A DNA stretch of 60,584 bases, filler included, from Sphacelaria rigidula (Eukaryota): the NCBI GenBank assembly GCA_964200075.2. It is 10 parts of 10 records of this genome, joined end to end, with 100 filler letters (N's around TTAATTAATTAA, not from the genome) between each part and the next. Parts side by side here need not be neighbours in the genome. Positions count along the whole stretch, not along the records: positions 54,617 to 60,584 come from CAXNAA020023127.1; 9 more parts are not named here. One strand, given 5' to 3'. The notes beneath the pieces are model-generated. The model worked only from the letters and a program-made list of their open reading frames with translations, was not told the origin of the DNA and did no database searches. Within the stretch, counting starts at the first letter, position 1. Each line of letters starts with the position of its first letter. Positions 21,401-60,584 of the stretch are shown here, piece after piece. A program made the translations under genes and the position numbers.

Positions 21401-23733
21401 AGGGAAGAAGAAAGGAAGCAGCGACAACAGCAACAACAACAAACAACAACAAACAAACACACACACGCACAAGCAACAAGATGATTAAATCTTGCATTAC
21501 GTGCTGATGACAATGTCGAACCCCAAACTCGACCTTGCAGCCGCAGAGCTTTGCCAGTGTTTTGGGGCACTGCCACGGAGAGCACGTTGTTGGAGATGAG
21601 ACACGTGTGAGAAATCACTAGATGTGGCGGACTGGCGTTGGCGGTCGACGCGGGCTGGAAAGGAAAAGCACCGTGACCGACATGCCAAAGAAAAAACGGC
21701 CTTTTCTAGTTTGCTTTTTTCTTCCTCATTTTGTTTGTTCGTTCGTTCCTTCGCTTCACCCATCAGTCTACTCTGTGTCCGTTCCACTTTTTTTATTTCT
21801 TCACCTTCCTTCAGCGAGTATCTCCGCTTTGTTGTATCTGGAGTACGTCTAATATGTGACGCGGCTGGATCCCTGTCGGGACCAGCTCATGTCGCCCAGA
21901 GTCAATCAATTAACCAATCAAATACGACAATTGTAGACATGGAATTCAGGGCAGGCGTATGCAAAATACTCGACAATGGGACTAAAAGTATGAAGTTCGG
22001 CAGCATACCACACAATCGAAAACGCAGGGCAGATGGATAAAAGCGACCGCACAATTTACGCGCACCATGTAGACCACGAGAGCATGCAGGCATTCCGCGG
22101 CCAGGGTCTTCGTTTGTCTCGCACCCTCGTGCCTGGCCAGCTCCACCAATCTCTGCAGCACGCCATCCATGCACACTGGCAGAGGATCCATCTGATCCTT
22201 GTATGGAATCTGTTTGTATCACGTGGTCAGAGCAATTTGGAGGGTTGAAGGGGAGATGAAGTCTCCGAAATTGGAAAGAAGCCAAAGGTACGGTGAAACG
22301 CAATACTATATGATCATCGCGAAAGTGAATGATACCTGTGATCTGTACGGGACAGAATCTGCACTCTGTTCAGTGCACACCTAAACTTAAATATGGGATC
22401 TATAAATATTGAGTTTTTCTGTCGGAAACATGGATAGATCTCGCGGAATTTCCCACAAGTAATACCGAACCTGATCTACCACGCACTGCCAAGAAATAGC
22501 AGTACGTTCTAGCTGTACCGGACAAAGCACTTTGGTCAGCTCACTCTAACATCGGATTTTTTTTGTTAATCTATGACCGACGGCCTGTTCTGTGGTGCGT
22601 AACAAGCGATTTCGTATACAATTTTGTCCCACTAGATACGCCTGCACACCCCAACAGAGGCAGCGGTGCAGCCACACGAATGGCCAATTCGTTTTCCCAG
22701 TATTTGCCAAACCTGGACCCGCACTCGTTTTGTGGGCTTTCTCGCCAATTTCCTCGACATGACGCATGGGAACACGATCATCTACGTGATCCTGGTCAAG
22801 CGAACTCGTACGAACAACTCATTCGTCAAACAAAAACTTCCTCTACTTCAGTATCCCGGCTTAAATCATCCAAAAACGAGGAATGGCACAGATTGCAGCT
22901 CCGGCGTCGAGGCAACCTGAAAGTTTGGTCCTTTACCTACGGTTGAGGTTTTGGAACAAACTAACAATAACGCCAACCCTAACCCTAAGCCCGACCCGAG
23001 GAGTACGAGACCCTCGGGCGAGGGTGGTGCATAGGTTCCCCGAGGCATAGTGTGCGTTGGCAGACCTGAAATCGACGCCGCAGGCGCCGAATTCGACAAA
23101 AAACACGTTCTGGACGAGCTCAGTCCACCACTGCTCACCTGCCCCCAACCAAAACAATTCTCAGATCTTTCTCTAGTCTAAAATCAGGTGTACTGCCGGC
23201 GTCACACCTCCTAGCAGGAACGCTCGTGAACACCTGCACGGTGCTCACCAGCTGAGTTTTGGTCCAAGACTAACTTTGGTCTTGATCCAAAACAACTTGA
23301 GGCGGAAGAGGTGGGAGCTGAGAGATACGCCGCACCTCGGCGACGCCATGGAAAAGTTGAGGCAATATTCCAGCGATGTGTTCCATAGGGCATACCCGGA
23401 AGTGGGGGACGTCCGTTTGGCAAACTCAAACAATACCGGAATGTGTCCCGGACATCCCGGTATAATTACAGTAGGGCATCGAGCCCTGTCTCGAACACTG
23501 CGGTGTTGCCCGCAAGGGTGTTGACCGATATCATACCTCTTTTATACTTGTGGAAATACCCTAATCTTAGCCGGTATATCCTACAGGACACAGCCTTGAA
23601 ATATTAGCCGTCTTTTTCTAGATCAAACGGGGTTGGGTTGTGTATCCTCACCTCGAGGACGATGCGGGGCACCGTATCCCAGGCGAGCGAGTCCGACAGT
23701 GCTTGCGATGCATCGGCAGCCACAAGATGGTTC
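18488..23733 (-). CDS. PRKDC: DNA-dependent protein kinase catalytic subunit (DNA-PKcs), internal fragment, 3 exons
   Basis: Exons 23733-23652, 22209-22066 and 18661-18488 with GT-AG boundaries splice in frame to NHLVAADASQALSDSLAWDTVPRIVLE-IPYKDQMDPLPVCMDGVLQRLVELARHEGARQTKTLAAECLHALVVYM-VGCTATD...FSKLFRRVLPAVLRLAVDLDETTRTLFSKLSMQLIRWFSQ. This is colinear with the DNA-PKcs HEAT segment as recalled (AWD...LPRVxELA..DRQTKVAACELLH...FPVLLRLAxDxDxVTRQL...MQLIHWF). Confidence 0.88.
22960..23110. repeat. Interspersed repeat with CCCTAACCCTAA tract; related copies at about 52925-53100 and 53205-53350
   Basis: GTGTGCGTTGGCAGACCT matches the reverse complement of AGGTCTACCAACGCACAC and AGGTCTGCCAATGCACAC. 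Confidence 0.6.
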
Positions 23734-26285: not shown

Positions 26286-29200
26286 TCATTGCGCCGCAGG
26301 TGGGGTTGGGAGCGGCAGAGATGGTGCATTGGCAGGCTTTCCCGCAGCTCGTTCGTCGACCCAGGCGTGGGCAAGCGCCAAGAGGGCACAGACCGCCACG
26401 TCCGACCTCAACACTCGCGATCCCAGCGATACCGCCTGCGTTTGGGAAAATGAACGCAGGCACCCATGGTACTGAAACAAATTTATCACCGCCTCTACGA
26501 ACATGTCGTGTGCACAGCTACGAATGGATGTGACGGAGCGAAGTAATCGATGCGGCAGAACGGACAATAGCATTTCGGTCAATATAGGTCACCAAGAGGT
26601 GAGAATTTTGGAGTGGCTGCGACTGTTGCTTGAAACGCTCTCATATTTATTAAGTGTACTCTTCGTAACGCAACCACAGCAAACATATCAAAACGTGTCG
26701 CCGTTCTAATGGCCTCGGCGTGTTTTTTGTTTCCCTAGTACGAAGCGTCACTTTCTAACGACGAGCATAAGAAAACGATACTTCTCTGTCACATAAATAA
26801 AGGTACCTAAATTTGTACGGGCCCTTAACGATGTCCGTTTTTTTGTTTTTTAATGAACTACTGTTTTTTGGGTTAAGAAAATGTGTTCAAAATTTGCAGC
26901 TCGTGCTTGAACCATACCGCCGAACGGCTGCAAAAAAAGTAGTAGGCCCAAAAATGGCCGTTTTTTGCCCCTTTCCGAGGGGAAAAAAAGTGTCGGCGTG
27001 TGCGATTAAAAAAAACAATAAAAAAATCCCGACACTTTCGTTCCCCTCGGAAAGGGGCGAAAAAACGGCAATTTTTGGGCCGACTACTTGTTTTGCAGCC
27101 GTTCGGCGGCATGGTTCAAGCACGAGCTGCAAATTTTAAACACATGTTTTTAACCCAAAAAAACACCGTAGAGTTCATGAAAAAGAAAAAAACGATCGGA
27201 CATCGTTAAGGACCCATACAAATTTAGGTACCTTTACTTATGGGACAGAGGAAGTATGTCGAGTACGGCCTCCTCGCCAACATTCAAGAATCACATGTGC
27301 CATTCCAACTCGCCTGGAATCCAAATGAGCTGAGGAGGTTCAGCTCGTGTGGCTCCTCCCACCCGCCTTCAGGTCCGACGGTAACCAGCACACCCGCCTC
27401 AGCTGGGTCGCAACCTGTGATATGTCGTGTGCATAGGTCGCATGTAGGGTGGCAGCACCCAAGAGCCTGAAAAGGGCCATCTTGAAAAAAACGTGTTCTG
27501 GAGACAAAAATTGAGCATAGTTCAGATACTTGCTGGGAAGCTATAATAGAGCTACAGCTTTCGATCGCGCCCACCCATGGCATAGGGTTCCCGGCAGGCG
27601 CTACAGGGTTTTTTGTCACGGAACAAAACACTGCGGTCATCAGCGACATTGAGCTCTCCATAAATGCGAGGTACCATCAGGAGGCTTCCAAGTTTCCAAC
27701 GTTCGGGTACATTCCGCAAAGTTTGCGTCCATGAGGCCAAACATTGTTGGCGTCACTGTTTGGAATTGAACGAAGTCGCACATCACACGTCGCATGACCA
27801 TTGTTGCTTGATAGTAGTCCGACACACTGGAAACATGCTGGAGTTGGCGCCACGATGGGCAGTGCGGCGTAGTATCGAGGCTGCCCAGGCCTCGGCTGAG
27901 ATGATGAGCGTGGCAGAAAAAGGCGGGAAAAGAAGGGGCCTCTACAAGCGGAGCTGATGTTCTACTTTTACTGTAGAGCCTCGTTTCCCTACGAACTGTT
28001 TTTATTTTTTTTCCGCTGTGGGATCCCCAAGTGTCGACGTAGCCACAGCGTCAGAAATATATGTTTTGCACTGTGCCCCCAGTGTTATTCATCATGTACG
28101 CCTAGATATCCCACGTGCGTGCCGCCCTGTGCAGTACGTGCCACAAAAAAAATCGTTCTCACAGTAGTTCGCACCCAGACCATTGCAAAGCTGTCGCTGC
28201 CGACAGAGTTGCTTTATGTGGCGGAAATTAGTTCGCCGAAAAGAGCGTGTCACCCCTGTACGTAGCTTCTCATCGTTTAGGAGAAAATGAGACCAAATTA
28301 CATATCCTTGTTCCTGATTCAAATATCTTCCTGCACGGAGAGTTTTGTTGGAAAAATCGGAACCGTTATTTTCAGGGTCTAGTGGTGCCACATCTCTCAG
28401 TTCCGGCACCACACACACACGCACGCACACATCCCTCCGCCTTCCCCGCCCCCCCCCCTTTTTGGCCTCAATGAAACTCCTACACATTGAACGAAAACCG
28501 CTGTAAAAGCAGACTGAAGACATGTACGAACCCCTGCATTATTATTGCTGGAATAGTGATTCAAGTGATCGCCGGATCAGAGAGGCCCCAGTGCAAAGTT
28601 TGCGCTATGTTCACCCCGCGCGCCCGATCTGCAGGGCTGTAGGACACGAAGTTGGGAACAGAAAAGCTGGTAAAAAAAAGCCCGCATATTAGTTTGTACG
28701 TACGAGGCATGTACACTTGGTCCTTATGTGGAGTGTCCAGGGGAAAATACAATACATGTATGCACATGGAAGTTTTGTTCGCTTTGGTGCCCGTGGCTAG
28801 AAATCTGGGGCAAAGCATAGAGAGGCCTGGATCAGAAAGCACATGGCGAGAGCATTCAGTCAATATAAGTTTCGGCGGGTGACGCATGGCCCTCCCGAAG
28901 ATACACGCCGAAACGTCCCTGAAAAGAGCAGTGATTTCCGTTACGTTACAGTACCCGGTGGGGTTTCTCTCCTCGTCTCGGAGCGTGAGTTGCTGAAAGT
29001 GAGGGAGACACAGGCAGAACGAGGGTGTACTGGGCGTACCGTGCCATTTACTCGACTAAAACTGTAGGCCGTACGGTACAATCTGTGGTAAAATTTAGGG
29101 AAGCGACAGAGGTGAGTCACCGTTTGTCATAGCACGTGAACGTCGATCCGTTTTTCTATGGCCGCGCACAGCGTGTAGCCATGCCGGCTCTACCGCAACA

Positions 29201-35520: not shown

Positions 35521-37788
35521 CTGGTTGTTCTGCGACAGGCACCCCCCCCCTTCCCCCCCGCCGCTCTCTTGAAACCCCCGGATGTCCGTGGACGGCCAGC
35601 CAGTGGAATTGTTCCGAGGCGAGGCTCGCGGTCAAAGGGTCAAGAAATTTACTCTCACATTCTCAAAGATTACAGTACTTGGCGCCTGAACTGTTTATAT
35701 TGTCAATTTCTTCGTAATCGGCGATTATGTCAGGTTCTTTCGCTTGCCACGGCTCATCACACTGAGGACCTGCAGATACTTGTACAGTACCCCCTCCACA
35801 TTCTAAGAAAAAAAACATCTGTACAGTACTCAATATATTGAAGGACTTACGGGCTGACCGGTCATCGGGGATCCTGTCACGTTTCAGCCCAAATTCTAAC
35901 TTTTCGGTATTTTCGGTGGATCGAGCCTGCCCCGATCGTATTTGTGAAAAAATGTGCATTTTTTTTTTTTTTAAATTCTACCTACTCGTTGCGCTAGAGT
36001 TGAATAACTGTGTTTCACGGTCAATAGCACCCTCCTGATAAACGGGGTATCTACTCGTATCGCGCGATAACACCAAGTAACTCTAACTTGGGCACTGGGG
36101 GGGGGGGAGAAGACGATCTGTTCATTTTACCAAATCTACCGACGCTGACACTTTCGAGTTCTATCGAAGAGCGGTCGCGAGAAAAAAACCCTCCTGTACA
36201 ATAAAACGTTCAGGCACCCAGTACTATATATCCCTGCCCCCACCCCCCACCCCCCACCCTCGAGGTCAATAGTCTTATGACTATGACATGCATGATCATG
36301 ACTAACCCCCCCNNNNNNNNNNNNNNNNNNNNNNNNNNNNNNNNNNNNNNNNNNNNTTAATTAATTAANNNNNNNNNNNNNNNNNNNNNNNNNNNNNNNN
36401 NNNNNNNNNNNNCAGTGTGAGGTCAAATGACGTGGATGCCATGTGGTTTCAAATATACACCATTATATCAGTGTTGTGGTCAGAATGTGCTTGTCTTCTA
36501 GTGTGGTGGTGAACGCTGCTCGGTTTCAGTGTATTTTAATCTGCTCCGTTCCACTACGGTAATTTGCCGTTGTACCCGGCTTCAGTTGAGGTTGTTGTTG
36601 TCTTCACATTAAAAGCCGCTCCGATATGTGCGCGGTAAATTCGTACTGGGCATCTGATGCGGACGCCTTCCGTGGTCACAGGCTAGCTACCTATGACAGC
36701 CTGGATTCGAATTTGAGGTTCAACATTTGGGCGAGGTTCAACGGACCATTGAAATTTCACTTCCTTTGTCCAAAAGGCTCGAGATTCGCAACCGGTTTCG
36801 ACCATGTAAGCCGAACCCAGAAGTTTCTGCACGGCAGTGCAAGCATGATGATGATCAGTCAAACAGAAAAACCGCCGTCATTCATTGTCCCGCAGTTTTT
36901 TAGCGGGATCTGCGTCTAAGCACTACGGAGCACGTAACAAAAATGCTAAAAACGTACTTCTTTGGACTAGTCGTCGGGTTGTCGAGCGCCTCTTCTTGTT
37001 GAGTATCTGAGAGAAACTTCACACTGTTGCGCCGGTGACGACCGCCGTCAGCGGAACGATCCAATCCGGGAACAGACACCAGCGATCTTTGTAACGCAGC
37101 ATCATTCAGCAGTCTGCCGAGATACACCATCACCAGAGTACAGCATCACTACAGTACAATCGTCAGTTGGATAAAGTGGGTGCCCCACAATAAAGCTGCA
37201 GAGACACACAACGGGGGTAAGGATCAGTCCCACGGTTGGGGTTGTTTCGCCAGTAGTGCCCATGCGAGGCGCTTTATCCGGTCTATACCAGCTATCACGC
37301 CGTGTATGGTCACCTCCGCCGTGGCTGTGTTGAGAACCGGTTCCGCGGTGAGGCTGTCGAACAGTACCATACTGTTGTGCAACGCGCTTGCAAAATCTGA
37401 GCCGTTTCTCTTAATTTAGAACCCGCATCAGCTGTAGTTTGAATATCTCTCCTGGCGGTCCCAACTGGGGTCTGATCCAGGGGCGGAAAGCGCTGGCACC
37501 CTCCCCCTCAGATAGGATTTGTGACAACTGTGGGGTATTTGGGGAAAATCGCTTGGAATGAAACATGTAGAATAGTATTCAGGGATATCGTAGTATATCT
37601 TTCCCTGTTCAAGATCGAAACTTCCTTGCTTGAACGCTTTGTACCCGTTACAATGAACTACTGCTTTCCAAGCAAACGACCCGTCATTTTAGGACTTCCA
37701 CTGGGGTCTACCCCTAAGCACGCGGTCCCCTCACGCATCACGACACTAACGTGGCTGGGACACGTCAGGAAACGCTCCGGAAACTACC

Positions 37789-37993
37789 TGCAATGCCTGA
37801 GAGGACCGCGTGCTTAGAGGACCGCATCTGAATTTGAATATCCGTATGGTTGGGGTTAGGGTTCGTATTGGGGTTAGAGTCAGGGGCATGGTACCTGCAG
37901 GGACTGGCCCAATTGGTGTAAAAATATGTGGATCCTGGGGTGTTTTGGACTACGCCGTGGTCCCCTAAGCACGCCGTCCTCTCACGCATTACA
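37789..37993. mobile_element. Ginger-like telomere-repeat MITE
   Basis: TGCAATGCCTGAGAGGACCGCG...CTCTCACGCATTACA; 5-bp TSD CTACC. Confidence 0.9.
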
Positions 37994-54516: not shown

Positions 54517-54930
54517 NNNNNNNNNNNNNNNNNNNNNNNNNNNNNNNNNNNNNNNNNNNNTTAATTAATTAANNNNNNNNNNNNNNNNNNNNNNNNNNNN
54601 NNNNNNNNNNNNNNNNGACTGATTGGGGCGTTAAAGCTGATTTCTTACTGCTACACGCCTCTCATGTGGGCGAAATAGCTGCAAACGAGCCCAATAGTGG
54701 GATCGCAGCCGGTTCGTTGGATGGTGCCGGTGCACTTTTTGTGGGGGGGCTACCTCGGCAGTAGTCGAGGACGCTTACCCCTCATCAGAGCGGTCGATTA
54801 CAATACACCACCGGGGCGCGGCGGCAAAGCATTACCACACACATATTTGAATTTTCTTGGAAAAACGGGAGCTGCAGGTATCCCGGTACTTGTGTTGCTA
54901 TAGCCTCGGGGGGTATTTCAATGGTATCAT

Positions 54931-55143
54931 TGTAATGCGTGAGAGAGGACCGCGTGCTTAGAGGACCGCGCCGTAGTCCAAAACACCGCAGGATCGATGT
55001 TTTTCAAAACCAATCGGGCCAGTCCCTGCAGGTACCACGCCCCTGACCATAGCCCCAACACTAACCCTAACCCTAACCCTAACCATGGCGATGTTCAAAT
55101 TCCGATGCGGTCCTCTAAGCACGCGGTCCTCTCACGCATTACA
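54931..55143. mobile_element. Ginger-like telomere-repeat MITE (best-preserved copy)
   Basis: TGTAATGCGTGAGAGAGGACCGCGTGCTTAGAGGACCGC...GCGGTCCTCTAAGCACGCGGTCCTCTCACGCATTACA; TSD TCAT; internal CTAACCCTAACCCTAACCCTAACC. Confidence 0.95.
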
Positions 55144-55269
55144 TCATTACCAGTGACAGAAACTCTACAACAGTAAAAGGGACGAGTAGAACAAGCACGA
55201 GGGGTTGCTGCATGTCTAGGTTGTAGCAACCATGACCATCTCCAGAACCACAAGGAATCGCGAAGTTAC

Positions 55270-58200
55270 CAGATTTGATGGAGACATCGGCGCAGTTCCA
55301 GAACTCTTCGGGGTACTTGTCATCTTCACCGCCGCACAATCCAGGCTCCGTGGTGATCCAGTTCTCCTTGTTGGGTGCGCACTCGCTAGGCCACGAGGGA
55401 GGATTGAACTCCTCATACCCAGGGTGGTGGCACGAGTTACCCGTGTCTACAAGATATAACAGAAGAGGGCGGGAGAAGAAGGGGAAGGTGCGTTGTCGTG
55501 AGGAGGGAACTGATGTTGTTTATTGATCATGACGCAGGCGTGTGCACGGTACCCTTCTCAACAAGGACCAGCACAATACACCTTCTTGAGCTGCACATGA
55601 AGCAAACGTCGCAATTATCTACACCACACACTCGTCGGTATCGACACCGCACGCTGAGTCGTGGTTGATATGTCAACTCAAAGTCAAAACAAGGCAGCTT
55701 TGGAACAAAGCAAATATACAACTTGTGGCAACTCTACACTGAGATCGTGGCAACCAAAATGTCACAACCGAAGTGAAAACCCAACATCCTGAAGCAAGCA
55801 TCAATGTAGGTGCGTCTAGACAGCACAACGTACAGTAAACCATCTGGATGATGCATCTCTCGCACGTCAGACCCTTGGGCAGCTGGTAGCGCGCGGTCAC
55901 CACGTGTCCAGAGTCAGTACCATCGGGTTTCGACTGGTCCGTCTCGGCCGCCCGGCACGGTGGGTCCACGTAGTAGCGACCCGGGTGGTTCGGATCTATG
56001 GGACTTGCGTCTCCGTCGTCCTCGGCCCGATCAAGTGGATACCTATTAAAGCAGCTCTGCGTAACGGGACTGTCGGGCCCGTCTGGTAGGTCCTCGGCGT
56101 TGCAGAGGAAAAACTCCAGGTGGCCCTGTTTTGTCGTGGTTGTGAGTGGAAGGGGTTAGCGCGAGGAAAGAGCGCGCGCGCGGGGGGGGGGGGGTTGCTA
56201 TCAAGTTGGCAACCATTGGTGTCAAATCCAAAGGAAAACCTTCCGAACAGCAAGGACTCGGGATCCTGGAATGATGACCTGACGCACCAAACGCACGACA
56301 GTCATGAAAAGATAAGAGGAACAGAGTAGCGCTCGAGGTTTCTGGACCAAAACTTTGGTAATGACCTGCTCCGATTGAATAACTAATAATTTCTCTCCGG
56401 TGAGACATCCGCTGAAAATTTTGCAGGCTTCTGACACATCCTGACGTACACGTTCGAAGCACCTGTACTAAACTCTCGACATAACGCAAAAGTATGCGCC
56501 GTAAACTCCGGACTTTTTTTTAATACAGTACATGATGCTCTTCGCTGAATTCAGTCTATAAATCGCATCACGTGTATACCGTGAGTAGAACGCTGGCGCC
56601 TTACCCAGTGGTAGGTGGACATGACGACCTTCATCTCCACCACCGAGCCCTCCGCCAGGGTTTCCAGCACGGGGTACACACTGTTGTCCTGCCCGTATCT
56701 GTTCGTGCCTTCGGGCTGAGTCTGCGTTGCGAATATTCGGGGGAAGGGGGTGTTCGGTGGGGAGGTCGTCGTGAGAAATCTAAACGAACGTGACCTCATT
56801 CCATGATCGTCTGGAAAAGGATGCACTATTGTCGAGTGTACGTGCGAGATTCCCTGAAGTGGTCGTCCTGTAATGCGTGAGAGGACCGCGTGCTTAAAGG
56901 ACCGCATCGGAATTTCAGAAGCCCTATGGATAGGGTGAGGGTGAGGGTGAGGGTGAGGGTTGGGGTCAGGATCAGGAGCGTCGTCCCTGCAGGGACTGGG
57001 ACAATTGGTTTCGAAAAACGTCGATTCTCAGGTGTTTTGAACTACGGCGCGGCCCTCTAAGCACGCGGTCCTCTCATCATGGATTGCAGTCCACCACTTC
57101 AGAATAACCATTTGTTATGGGTGCAATGTCATCACACATGTAAAGCGTGTGGAAACAAGTGCACACACATGTTTGGAAACCGGACATCATAGTGTTTCTC
57201 TTCTGACGTATTTTTGTTGTGACAACTATATCTTCGGAATTCCGCTGAGAGGGGAAGTAGAAACACTCTCGAAATCGTCAAATGAGACCTTTCCGCCAAG
57301 ATCTCTTTCGCTGTGAAACAACGTAGGTATTCGGATTGTAGATAGACTCCATAGAACAAACAATACCAAAGACACGTAATGTATGTACATGCCAAGCGGG
57401 CCAATGAGGGCAAACTGTTAGATCACGAGCTCTATAAGCTAACGCGGAATACCGGGAAAACATGGCAATTTTAAAAAGAAAAATCGCAGCGCCATACCCG
57501 AGTTAGACGCCGGAGAGTCGAAGTGTTTCGCAAATACCTTGACAAAATTTGCCCTCCAGTACATGGGCGATGCCTGGGTGACCGGGCTAAAACATACCCA
57601 CTATTCAAAAGTAGATGAATTCCACGACACGAGCCATGCGTTGGTTATACACTGTGGGTAGCGAGACACATGGATGGTGTCGTGTTTTTGCGCCAACTAG
57701 TGTTTTCGTCTTTTTGCTCATCTCGGATAGGACTGTGATATGACCACGGCTAGAACCCTGGGGGGTCCGTCAACGTGCGATATCAATCAATCAATCGATC
57801 AACGCCGGACATACCTGTCCAGGGTCGCCACACAGGCCATGCCGAACAGAGATAGCGTCGGTCTCGTAGTAATTCCCGTTGGGCAACAGCTCACCCCTCT
57901 CGTACGAGTCATGGTGGGGCCAGCGACCGTCGCCGTAGATTTCCAGTTCGATGGGATCCGTGTTGGCATGAGCCCGCGCGCGCACGGCCGACGGACCTTT
58001 GGACTGCATGCAGTGTGGACAGTGCTCCAGTTCAGGAAATCCTCTGCATTCCGTTTGAGCGCCAGCAGCAAAGAGTTATGGCGGCGGCGGGGGGGGGAAA
58101 ATGGGAATTATCAAAAACGAGCTTCCACACATTCTTTTCGATGAACACATCCGGAATGCGCGTTCCGATGGGCTCTTCCCTCACACTCTTTGCAACCAGC

Positions 58201-59155
58201 TTCACATTCTAATTGCAAGCATGGACGGGCACGGCTCCAAGACGAATCAATCAAATGATGGGCCACTGCTAGTGTCGTTGTGGTGGTTATTGGCAAATAT
58301 GTTGCATCTTGTGCGAACGTTGTACATGGACTGCATGAATCACGACCATGGGGGCATACAGCCGGGTTAAGCATGGCAATAACTGATGAATATGAGAAGA
58401 ACTAGAAGAATTTTGCCTTTCCCAAATTTTGCCACGGCGTCTGTTCGTGCTATGTGAAACCTTAACCCCCCCCCCAAGATGTTTGGAGAGTGATGTTCAG
58501 AACGCGGCCCCGTATGTGTATTGATTGGTCGGTGGTCATGTAGCACCCTCGTAAGCACAAGGCAGCACCTATACAGATACATGCACCGTGAGCCCTTTAC
58601 TAAAGTCCGTTACGAATGAGTTCAACTACAGTATACCAAAAGTGTCAGTGGTGCAATAGTGTGTTACTGCGACCTTTCGACCCCATATGGAAATTCCAGT
58701 CGCCCTGACCGATTACGCGGAAGGAGTAGGGTGAAAATGAAGGTGTTTCTGGCGTTCAGTCATAAAACTCTCGTATCGACATACGTTACTGTCCCTGCAC
58801 ACGATCAATGAACCCATCGCGCAGCGCTTTGATCACCTTTCGCCTGTGCTACCTCACACATTCACCGCCTGACTCCAACGAAGACACGGCCAACTTGGCA
58901 ACACGATATATTCGCACAGAGAGTTCGCAGAGATACTGCAACGAGAAAAGACAAGAATGAAATTCCCACAGGGGAAGTCGTGGGTACAAGAGCAACTCGG
59001 TGGAACACTCACGCTTGCTGGAATACGGGAGTGTAGTGGAAGGTACGGCTGACTGGCGCCATCAAGAAAGCGTGGCCCTCAACTTGATCGGGAAGCACTC
59101 CTAGGAAGAACCCGCCGGTGAAGATCGCGGCTTTCACCCACGTCGACAGAGCCAT
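55270..59155 (-). CDS. Secreted copper-dependent lytic polysaccharide monooxygenase, AA15-like (chitin-binding type-4 fold), 3'-partial, 5 exons
   Basis: Exons 59155-59013, 58043-57815, 56721-56605, 56125-55834 and 55446-55270, all GT-AG and phase-compatible. Signal peptide ..VEG|HAFLMAPVSR (His1), HCPHC, HGLCGDP, STYHWGHLEFFLC, QSCFNRYPL, RYQLPKGLTCERCIIQMVYYTGNSC, EEFWNCADVSI. Alternative upstream ATG at 59176. Confidence 0.9.
56869..57088. mobile_element. Ginger-like MITE in the LPMO intron, with (GGGTGA)n variant repeats
   Basis: TGTAATGCGTGAGAGGACCGCG...GATTGCA; TSD GTCC; internal AGGGTGAGGGTGAGGGTGAGGGTGAGGGT. Confidence 0.9.
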
Positions 59156-59860
59156 ACTTGTCGATCGCCGAACCATGTCAATTCTGTTTGTTGGATGGAG
59201 AAAAAGATGATGGTGCTCGTCCGGTATATTACAGTTTGAGTGTGTACGTTTGTAAGCAAAGTTATGCCTGTCGCCGACGGTGGCTATGATTTTGTGGGGA
59301 GGTGGGGCTCCATGTGCGCGGGGGGGGCACGATGGGTGAGAAAGGCAACCAACCGCTAAATTCTCTCTCGCGGGCATGGGAGATACGTTTTGAAAAATCG
59401 GGAGTTTGGGCGTTACAAGAGAGGGACGTTCCAACCGGAACAAAATACAAGAGAGCGTTGTGGGACAGTTGATACCTCGGGTGATCTGAGATGACATTGC
59501 CTGGATCGTAAATACCGCGGAGCAATTTGAAAGATAGTTTTGACTTCGGCGAACCGTTGAACTTCAATAGTTTAGCGTCGCACTGCCGAACGTTTGGTAT
59601 TGTGTATATATATATATATGCACGTCGTGTTGTGTCGAACGTTCGGCTTCAATTTCACGTCTACTGCATATTGCACCGTATAAATCCACCGTACCGTCAC
59701 CTTTTGTCGGGAAACTATTCGTTGATGGTTCAAGCGTTCACCCTTGGCTGCAAAATTGTGATTTTTGAGGCCCGCGTGCTGTGCAATCGATTCGATTGTT
59801 TGAAACTTGATGTTAACCCAGTGACCGCCAGGGTGGATATTCTGGGCAGTCAGTAATAAA

Positions 59861-60291
59861 CACGGGATTTTGCAAATTGGGGATGGATCTTTCATTGGGG
59901 ATGAAAACCTAAGGACTAAAATCTTCGGATCCACACCAAATCTTCGAAGTATGCTTCCATTTCTTCACTTGCTGGTGGCTATTGACAACTACTACACGCC
60001 ATAAAAATTTGGATTTCGATAACCGAAATGCCGGAGCCCTAGGTGAAACACCAATTTTGGCAGCCGATCGGACACCTGAAATCCCCCAAAATTGTTTTTT
60101 CACCAAGGACCCTGACATTTCGGTTATCGGCATCCAATTTTGTATGGCGTGTAGAAGTTGTCAATAGCTACCAGCAAATGAAGAAATGGAAGCATACTTC
60201 GAAGATTTGGTGTGGATACCGTACGAAGATTGTAATCCTCCGGGTTTTCATCCCCAATGAAAGATTCGTCCCTAATTTGTGAAATCGCGTT
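59861..60291. mobile_element. Foldback MITE (same family as 46213-46644) upstream of the LPMO gene
   Basis: CACGGGATTTTGCAAATTGGGG...CCTAATTTGTGAAATCGCGT; arms ATCCACACCAAATCTTCGAAGTATGCTTCCATTTCTTCA and its reverse complement. Confidence 0.85.
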
Positions 60292-60584
60292 TTAATACCT
60301 TTTTCACGTGAAAAATTGTGCAGGACTCAAACGGCATACTCGGGCAGTCAAGAGGTCAATGCATAACCATTTCTGCAGGAAATATAGCGACAACATCGCC
60401 GCCAATGGGATTACTTTCCCCACCGTGCGTTGAATCAATCATGAGCGTTTCGCAGAATGAGTTTGTTTCACTCAAAATCCAAATCACCGCTCTGAGAAAC
60501 TCGAAATGGTTGTTTCGAAAAAGTTCAAGGGTCGGACAAACAATGATTCGTCTGTAGATTACTTGGTTTTAGTATGATGAGTCG

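Follow-up and report, generated by a model that had tools for sequence, protein, structure and literature searches.

At positions 54,931–55,143 of a 60,584-nt stretch of the Sphacelaria rigidula genome (the window, ten contigs of ~6 kb with N linkers between them) lies a full-length, plus-strand copy of a miniature inverted-repeat transposable element (MITE), 213 bp against a 211-bp family consensus. Its target site duplication (TSD) is TCAT, 4 bp, with the left copy at 54,927–54,930 and the right copy at 55,144–55,147. The left 37-bp terminal inverted repeat (TIR), here carrying a 2-bp GA duplication (54,931–54,969, plus strand), begins with TGTAA and contains the AGAGGACCGC motif twice. A degenerate continuation of a parental long TIR follows (54,970–55,054, plus strand, consensus ~38–122), homologous to the ends of foldback and giant elements. 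The junction filler at 55,055–55,087, with (CTAACC)4 at 55,061–55,084, is G-rich on the minus strand and is not found in the parental TIRs. The right arm (55,088–55,143, minus strand), with its 37-bp TIR at 55,107–55,143, corresponds in reverse complement to the opening ~56 bp of the parental TIR. Judging from a splice donor read by eye, the copy is probably intronic, ~125 bp beyond the predicted donor of a minus-strand gene. The element is real and abundant; we think it likely that it is a MITE whose Ginger-like family, probably undescribed, is brown-algal and has giant parents with long TIRs, and that its telomere-type tract is a junction scar carried as a passenger.

The consensus is non-autonomous and non-coding, with TIRs that are perfect over 37 bp and degenerate over ~56 bp, TGT..ACA ends, and a TGTAA terminus that follows the TGTNR rule of both Ginger groups. 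It has the attributes of a MITE, being short and non-coding, with TIRs, a TSD, many copies and termini common to longer elements. We searched 244 Mb in 27,214 contigs, a fragmented assembly nearly without chromosome ends. The terminal 25-mer has 1,481 exact matches there, versus none for a control, and 40 evenly spaced stretches (343,400 bp; six matches, two of them full-length; 37 stretches empty) give an estimate of ~4,300 copies and fragments genome-wide (95% range 1,600–9,300). Divergence from the consensus averages ~5.5%, and among 113 copies the best pair is 98.5% identical and no two are identical, which argues for an old burst. The copies are clustered, with 11 extra copies in 77.6 kb around the 29 best-hit loci versus 1.4 expected (P = 2e-7). 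Copies that are neighbours do not resemble one another more closely than the rest do (3 of 66 best matches versus 1.1 expected; mean rank 0.43), so local hopping was rejected as the cause, and regional preference or retention fits better. An Rfam search with the MITE gave no match, and no empty-site joint, which would mark an insertion polymorphism, is among the joints listed.

TSDs were scored on best hits and exact-TIR hits (plus neighbours in the larger set), which are not a random sample. Among 113 distinct full-length copies, 49 have an exact 5-bp and 24 an exact 4-bp TSD, one has a 3-bp match and 39 have none, whereas shuffled flanks yield 0.59 and 0.88, respectively. A stricter set of 68 copies (one nested locus counted twice) contains 34 five-bp and 16 four-bp duplications, 11 with one mismatch and seven without any, compared with 0.66 and 0.45 after shuffling. 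The original prediction had quoted five TSDs, all of which are exact (TCAT at 54,931, GTCC at 56,869, ACGT at 8,892, GGCGT at 8,056 and CTACC at 37,789), and the 4–5-bp duplication that it proposed recurs among the copies scored genome-wide. The 5-bp and 4-bp classes are of the same age (5.5% versus 5.8% from the consensus, p = 0.84) and have one common half-site preference. Counted from the TSD edge in 146 half-sites, position −3 is a purine in 134, −4 is G in 82 and −2 is T in 69, and the first TSD base is not T in 140. We infer a single enzyme with two subunits, each reading one half-site, and a stagger of 4 or 5 bp. None of the 16 four-bp TSDs is CCGG and two are CCGT/ACGG; the TSDs are not AT-rich, and with a G-R-T-N preference outside the TSD they depart from the RTATAY target of Ginger2/TDD. 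The TSD search reached 10–12 bp at most. Telomeric repeats occur in only 2 of 222 MITE flanks, so the MITE does not target telomeric DNA.

Three size classes have one 37-bp terminus in common: the 211-bp MITE, a ~1.1-kb foldback element, and giants with terminal blocks of 0.7–1.7 kb. The MITE numbers in the thousands, versus ~50 candidate matches for foldback and long ends together. One giant, on contig C10636, is an 8,356-bp element with 720-bp TIRs. On contig C1162, a 1,249-bp block ends in the 37-bp TIR of the MITE and is 94% identical to the end of the C10636 element. The long terminal block, 1.25–1.7 kb in length, is present on only 5 of the 27,214 contigs. C1162 opens with 960 bp that match the C10636 interior at 97% identity and in the same orientation; given this shared interior and the right-end block, the C1162 element spans at least 12.2 kb, with an integrase gene between them.

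Within the terminal block we also observe a second, inward-facing 37-bp TIR, reversed and ~435–455 bp from the end (L153:6726–7180, L197:59–493 and 7960–8414), so that each long end resembles a MITE by itself; tandem sub-repeats follow farther inward. The shared interior of the giants (L197:2300–4241, equivalent to C1162:1–960 and C5306:6554–7709) contains minus-strand open reading frames (ORFs) with no function assigned, one of which has a weak PRORP match (E 0.0025); these are possibly an accessory gene. Patterns of TIR variants (negative continuation) were tried as another route to a partner and gave 3, 11 and 4 matches, none of which yielded one. The first two sets are ordinary MITE variants, and in the third only L149 appeared as a MITE.

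The candidate partner was located through a weak rve match on C1162 among 126 ORFs of MITE-rich loci. It is a broken gene, apparently split by introns, in which the full set of three DDE motifs and an H2C2-like motif can be made out, and it sits directly upstream of the 1,249-bp terminal block. No comparable integrase turned up elsewhere in the assembly (1 of 76 and 2 of 112 scored candidates qualify, every one on C1162). Pfam rve gives E 6e-4 for the local C1162 piece and 2.6e-8 for a homologue, P0002. The DDE motifs align throughout the clade, and an H-x3-H..C-x2-C pattern is visible at L153:3237–3419 and aligns to P0002; Pfam Integrase_H2C2 gives no match. By eye, the N-terminal piece resembles a YPYY motif, and the SH3-like piece shows no GPY/F; neither piece found a homologue among the proteins compared. 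Reverse transcriptase (RT) and RNaseH had no match on the examined parts of the long-element contigs. The original proposal of a non-autonomous element of an integrase-type, Ginger-like transposon is supported by this broken gene with H2C2-like and DDE motifs, in what appears to be a long element with the same terminus. An old MITE copy lies within this gene (L153:4802–5012) and has both termini altered symmetrically, read either as GG..CC with TSD ACGT or as an extra G/C; the symmetry suggests TIR homogenisation.

The integrase belongs to a compact clade. Eleven representatives score E<1e-10; with a profile, 18 proteins score E<1e-25, well separated from Gypsy, Copia and further rve proteins (E≥3.7e-11). 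In a quick 110-column tree, 20 clade rows fall on one branch (Shimodaira–Hasegawa-like approximate likelihood-ratio support 95) apart from the genome's long terminal repeat (LTR) retrotransposon integrases, with the deeper forks unresolved. The sole named eukaryote in the clade is the brown alga Nemacystus. A first search with the 125-aa DDE piece found no homologue among longer proteins, scans of metagenome and viral contigs found distant matches only (25–45% identity), and there was no labelled Ginger2 protein among the homologue matches. The AlphaFold model of P0002 is poor (pLDDT 52.8), and Foldseek returned only weak retroviral-integrase rows (E>0.001); the best NCBIfam match of P0002 is IS481 (E 5e-12, 45.9 bits versus a cut-off of 224). 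Other routes were set aside. A genome-wide Pfam rve search returned, as the best 30 of 150 scored loci (1,683 candidates), Gypsy and Copia elements without a TIR, and the rve_3 profile had no match in the genome. A Gypsy integrase query against the Atlas gave no usable Ginger reference, and a 161-bp, 94% match to a transposase on C14864 is an isolated fragment that links nothing.

Upstream of the terminal block on a second contig, C13501, and on the same strand, lie USP-like and Ulp1-like exons. A paralogue on C25372, 77–83% identical, also matches Peptidase_C48 (E 0.0056–0.064 across the two contigs, below the curated cut-off), and the protease His/Asp/Cys motifs are recognised by eye in both. 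A predicted Nemacystus protein, P0015, matches both the C1162 DDE region and the first USP-like exon of C13501; these two parts of P0015 match two of the five terminal-block contigs.

By its sequence features the family would work like a Ginger element. Its termini, integrase and Ulp1-like module are Ginger1-like and its 4-or-5-bp TSD is Ginger2-like, with membership of neither group shown. Ginger1, in the portion of its description available to us, has a 4-bp TSD of CCGG (75%) or CCGT/ACGG, TIRs of 40–270 bp, lengths of 2.6–7 kb, YPYY and GPY/F motifs and a C-terminal Ulp1 or OTU protease, and is described from four animals (PMC2836005). The family here resembles it in the TGTNR termini, DDE motifs, non-autonomous derivatives and a probably intron-split gene, and may do so in its H2C2-like motif and Ulp1-like exons. 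The S. rigidula elements differ from it in TSDs that are mostly 5 bp (34 of 50 exact TSDs) with no CCGG in 16 four-bp sites, in 0.7–1.7-kb terminal blocks (a 720-bp TIR on 8,356 bp) and lengths exceeding 12 kb (at least 12.2 kb for C1162), in an extra USP-like module and in their brown-algal host. Ginger2/TDD elements (TDD-4, TDD-5), as far as the accessible account goes, have TGTNR ends, a 4- or 5-bp TSD and DDE in common with the family here, carry an H2C2 finger to which its H2C2-like motif may correspond, and include a known 252-bp MITE, Ginger2-1N1_NV. That account assigns each family a single TSD length and names AT-rich RTATAY as the target, whereas here both lengths occur and the G-R-T-N half-site lies outside the TSD; in the same account Ginger2 has no protease domains or giant TIRs, unlike the giants here. 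Of the original assignment to Ginger2/Tdd, the Ginger-like character stands; strict membership is not supported, given the target site, the protease exons and TIRs of more than 700 bp. Giant size, long TIRs, two protease-like modules, two TSD lengths and one half-site together fit neither Ginger group as described.

Other systems offer partial parallels. The curated Ectocarpus table has no Ginger family and one entry, DNA5-N1_Ec32, labelled 'possible Ginger?' (PMC12477816). Like the MITE, this is a brown-algal, non-autonomous TGT..ACA element with a 5-bp TSD, but it has TGTTG ends, a 9-bp TIR and a length of 502 bp, and no autonomous partner or telomeric tract is noted for it (PMC12477816). 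Our analysis supplies a candidate transposase clade, common to at least one other brown alga, where the curated library had a MITE without a partner. For Saccharina sculpera, the section available to us reports an automated 'ClassII/Ginger' label with 875 hits (0.01%) (PMC12595068). The giant brown-algal KDZ, EnSpm and Sola1 elements are likewise longer than 10 kb, with nested insertions, pseudogenised transposases and mobilisation in trans, but belong to other superfamilies with other termini and TSDs of 8, 2 and 4 bp (PMC12477816). IS481EU/Banshee elements have TGT..ACA ends, an integrase-like DDE and several TSD lengths per family; in the accessible part of their description they lack HHCC, fall into TSD classes of ~4, 15 and 25 bp and are confined to parabasalids (PMC10045372). 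In the S. rigidula family an H2C2-like motif is present and the main TSD is 5 bp, within a search that stopped at 10–12 bp. Our literature searches brought up no description of a telomere-repeat MITE and no curated autonomous Ginger in brown algae; Repbase, Dfam or the Ectocarpus library FASTA (uncurated 'familyNNN') may hold the MITE family.

The telomere-type tract can be placed relative to the parental sequence. When the ends are aligned, consensus 1–~122 follows the parental TIR over its first ~120 bp in degenerate form, and ~156–211 repeats the opening ~56 bp of that TIR in reverse complement; the ~33-bp tract stands exactly at the junction of the two pieces. The tract has four perfect units in the consensus, and the longest perfect run per copy ranges from 0 to 7 (median 3, 68 copies), with common lengths differing by multiples of 6. 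It is absent from the parental long ends and from 6 of 6 foldback copies. TTAGGG is the telomere repeat of Ectocarpus (PMC11541908), which agrees with the assumption in the original prediction that the tract is of host telomere type, and one contig-terminal array is found in this genome. At the 3′ end of C583 (L091:1497–1567), (TTAGGG)n lies on the 3′ G-rich strand directly on a Gypsy-type RT fragment, with no subtelomeric satellite, and looks like a healed chromosome end. A close analogue is provided by short interstitial telomeric sequences, in which, from the partial account available, a few TTAGGG units stand at a break junction with a flanking deletion and possibly in-register bases (PMC7215372). 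Here too the host hexamer is absent from the ancestral 'empty' sequence and accompanied by a flanking deletion; those sequences, on the same account, are one-off scars in mammalian genomes, whereas a single scar is amplified thousands-fold here (PMC7215372). By this analogy, the tract would be telomere-repeat filler captured once at a repaired break and then amplified. MITEs that disperse a tandem repeat are known from insects (GTCY) and Xenopus (Xstir); as far as these are described in the part of the source available, the present case differs in that the repeat is the host telomere hexamer and marks a deletion junction (PMC6947457).

Non-telomerase origins of the tract are the most probable alternative, though we still give them well under an even chance; they concern the tract's origin alone and overlap with the favoured reading. 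The tract could have arisen by slippage from a C-rich proto-repeat, or as a template-switch copy of an interstitial or subtelomeric repeat. The parental TIR at ~108–122 is already C-rich and hexamer-like, grading into perfect units, and 6-bp length steps are ongoing, as slippage would predict. Against such origins, the pure units are the exact host hexamer, oriented as a 3′ G-strand addition to the short arm, and the telomere-type 16-mer is ~670-fold commoner genome-wide than its reversed control (2,688 overlapping matches versus 4), being frequent outside the MITE too.

The dispersal of such tracts by the MITE, as originally proposed, is borne out. The MITE junction is found on 388 of 652 run ends of one register, a register that favours the MITE; by hand count the MITE makes up at least 20 of the first 62 tract loci listed and 13 of 29 loci with ≥7 units. 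About a third is a fair figure for its share of the genome's short telomere-type tracts. Much of a genome's stock of interstitial telomere-type tracts can thus be traced to one scar copied thousands-fold, which bears on telomere-motif counts, fluorescence in situ hybridization and chromatin immunoprecipitation in algae, and provides thousands of replicate tracts for testing selection or binding.

We propose the following course of events. An integrase supplied in trans would bind the doubled AGAGGACCGC motif in the TIRs and insert the element through cuts staggered by 4 or 5 bp, with a preference of each subunit for G-R-T-N immediately beyond the point where it cuts. The MITE may have been born by internal deletion while a break, such as one left by excision, was being repaired; filler of a few TTAGGG units would have been added there, like short interstitial telomeric sequences. 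The tract would then have hitchhiked through the old burst, changing only by 6-bp slippage and neutral substitution.

Several observations weigh against this picture. The C1162 gene has an in-frame stop, contains a MITE and is cut off at the terminal block, its left end is unassembled, and no intact autonomous copy was found in the assembly. C10636 and C5306 have the interior and terminal block and no integrase, so the integrase gene could be an insert or cargo. No TSD was found at the long ends of C1162 or C10636, and of six foldback copies one has an exact TSD and three a one-mismatch TSD (one after a 2-bp end shift). The USP label comes from the Atlas, in which 'putative USP domain' clusters score 0.94; Pfam and PDB sequence searches gave no match for it. 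The Ulp1 label on C13501 comes from Pfam C48 (Peptidase_C48) at E 0.0056 and 0.064, below the curated cut-off, and C25372 has no terminal block in the 600 bp downstream examined. The integrase and protease exons are on separate contigs linked only through P0015, and two of the four genome matches of P0015 are its first 41 residues, at unrelated loci, so the model may be chimeric. The junction register is blurred as well, the parent having AGG, most MITE copies ATGG and a few AGGG.

It is conceivable, but in our judgement unlikely, that the C1162 integrase comes from another element nested or captured in the long-TIR family, leaving the mobiliser unidentified and the superfamily unassigned, as for DNA5-N1_Ec32. 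The long copies without a TSD and the presence of the integrase in one of five long-element contigs would fit this, as would the observation that elements of the long-TIR family often sit inside other transposons. However, the only integrase of the clade found in the genome and the P0015-related protease exons abut the same rare block in the same orientation, and an enzyme of integrase type is to be expected from TGT termini combined with TSDs of 4/5 bp.

A functional tract is slightly less probable still. G-quadruplex (G4) formation or telomere-protein binding by the tract would here aid MITE transposition and clustering, or provide the host with healing seeds. The tract-bearing MITE far outnumbers its tract-less relatives, yet the small size of a MITE can by itself account for its abundance. 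As had been suggested, a G4 could form in many copies, with the motif in 17 of 68 copies at loops ≤7 nt and 49 of 68 at loops ≤12; in the 54,931 copy the modelled G4 makes the G-strand fold 5.9 kcal/mol lower in energy and sits in the TIR-hairpin loop. These models speak to capacity, not function. Two-sided nested insertions fall in 6 of 6 cases at consensus 105–145, at or beside the tract (L053, L096, L149, L155 and window 8,056 and 11,245), a hotspot possibly biased by alignment breaks at the repeat; two are MITE-in-MITE insertions after ACCCT, and one-sided cases occur at L099, L165 and L167. Together with the clustering described above, the hotspot would suit a functional tract, as would the TTAGGG in Ectocarpus subtelomeric satellites and the similar Chlamydomonas motifs hypothesised to be healing seeds (PMC11541908).

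Conservation argues the other way. Mismatch to the consensus is 7.9% in the remaining interior, 6.9% in the tract and 3.1% in the TIRs, the last figure being low in part through the choice of copies by their TIRs. C-run columns show no excess conservation over the remaining G/C columns (p = 0.95) or the remaining tract columns (p = 0.69). The tract does vary internally, as the original prediction had noted, but its G-runs, said to persist, are kept only like other interior sequence. Perfect runs with a MITE junction have ≤9 units genome-wide, the two arrays of ≥10 units both lie outside MITEs, and the contig-terminal array stands on Gypsy-type RT; the suggested role in chromosome healing thus finds no support here, in a test made weak by an assembly almost without chromosome ends. 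The rarity of telomeric flanks likewise tells against function. On present evidence, the tract is a passenger and not a functional module. An extended version, in which brown algae host an undescribed giant, foldback-ended integrase-type lineage, distinct from Ginger1 and Ginger2, with a USP-like deubiquitinase and a Ulp1-like SUMO protease in its transposase gene and a variable 4/5-bp stagger, and in which the telomerase-filled tract (loop G4, insertion hotspot) aided MITE spread and clustering, strikes us as similarly improbable; if true, a transposon would be a main distributor of active telomere-protein or healing sites.

That the element is a solo LTR or terminal-repeat retrotransposon in miniature of Gypsy/Copia type is very improbable and was rejected, since despite TG..CA ends and 4-/5-bp TSDs that match Ectocarpus Gypsy and Copia (PMC12477816 supplement) it has perfect 37-bp and degenerate ~56-bp TIRs derived from long inverted ends, no common internal sequence in 222 flanks (30 scattered cross-hits), no direct repeats around an internal region, hardly any primer-binding-site-like or polypurine-tract-like starts (2 of 109 and 1 of 113 flanks, respectively), heterogeneous loose ends (agreement 0.31), and no proper TIR at the best 30 rve loci.

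All nine copies originally listed in the window are present, on three contigs and with the TIR as quoted. An intronic location, also proposed, holds for at least one of them, the full-length minus-strand copy at 56,869–57,088 (TSD GTCC, tract mutated to TGAGGG units), which lies in a spliced GT–AG intron (56,722–57,814) identified by a CT..AC joint (56,721–57,815) in contigs of an RNA-like run. This intron belongs to a spliced, multi-copy minus-strand gene at 55,270–59,560 with four GT–AG introns, which hosts two MITE copies. Its product presumably resembles a chitin-binding or lytic polysaccharide monooxygenase-type protein; Pfam gave no match on single ORFs. A partial plus-strand copy (left ~145 bp) lies at 6,925–7,083. 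The plus-strand copy at 8,056–8,533 has the 5-bp TSD GGCGT and a tract interrupted by an unrelated inverted-repeat element of ~250–280 bp, and the minus-strand copy at 8,892–9,235 has the 4-bp TSD ACGT and a tandem duplication of its left 106 bp, as well as an extra TIR unit. An older plus-strand copy with an internal deletion is found at 9,862–10,053. The minus-strand copy at 11,245–11,790, with 4-mer flanks differing by one mismatch, is interrupted by a 331-bp TG..CA element with the 5-bp TSD TGGTG, a probable solo LTR or another TGT-ended element. This ~331-bp element (window 11,355–11,685; L099, C9616) has inserted twice, in opposite orientations and within ~10 bp of one MITE position (96% over 242 bp), and it has a CAACA end reminiscent of DNA5-N1_Ec32 or of a solo LTR of Copia type. 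A full-length minus-strand copy with the 5-bp TSD CTACC occupies 37,789–37,993, and beside it a plus-strand right-end remnant of another copy (37,694–37,742) is absent from the earlier list. The decayed minus-strand copy at 40,266–40,430, its tract mostly deleted and without a TSD, lies between predicted exons of a presumably Hsp70-like gene; a Pfam search gave no match.

Elsewhere in the genome, an EsV-1-7 repeat gene and ORFs for Copia/Gypsy gag and integrase contain or adjoin copies (L156, L160, L161, L165), so the MITE is not confined to introns. The EsV-1-7 repeats at one such neighbouring locus match at E 4e-165; these repeats have proliferated in brown algae (PMC12477816).

Short telomere-type tracts outside any MITE occur at window 22,961–22,997 and L110:4030–4052. 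An internal array of ~15 TTAGGG units on C25608 (L093:1479–1572) is flanked by two compact ORFs that look like genes; the contig does not resemble the intron-rich DNA of the host and may be from another organism. At C79:14464–14518, a TTAGGG run is followed by a CCCTAA run, head-to-head, like a telomere fusion or palindrome. A second TGT..ACA MITE family is present on C16807 (L027:2985–3211; 227 bp, ~49-bp TIR starting TGTCT, exact TSD GGGCC), and another inverted-repeat element of 237 bp, flanked by AATT at either end and with a TIR of ~61 bp, lies at window 26,895–27,131. Very high-depth repeats occupy window 54,620–54,818 and 59,794–60,584.

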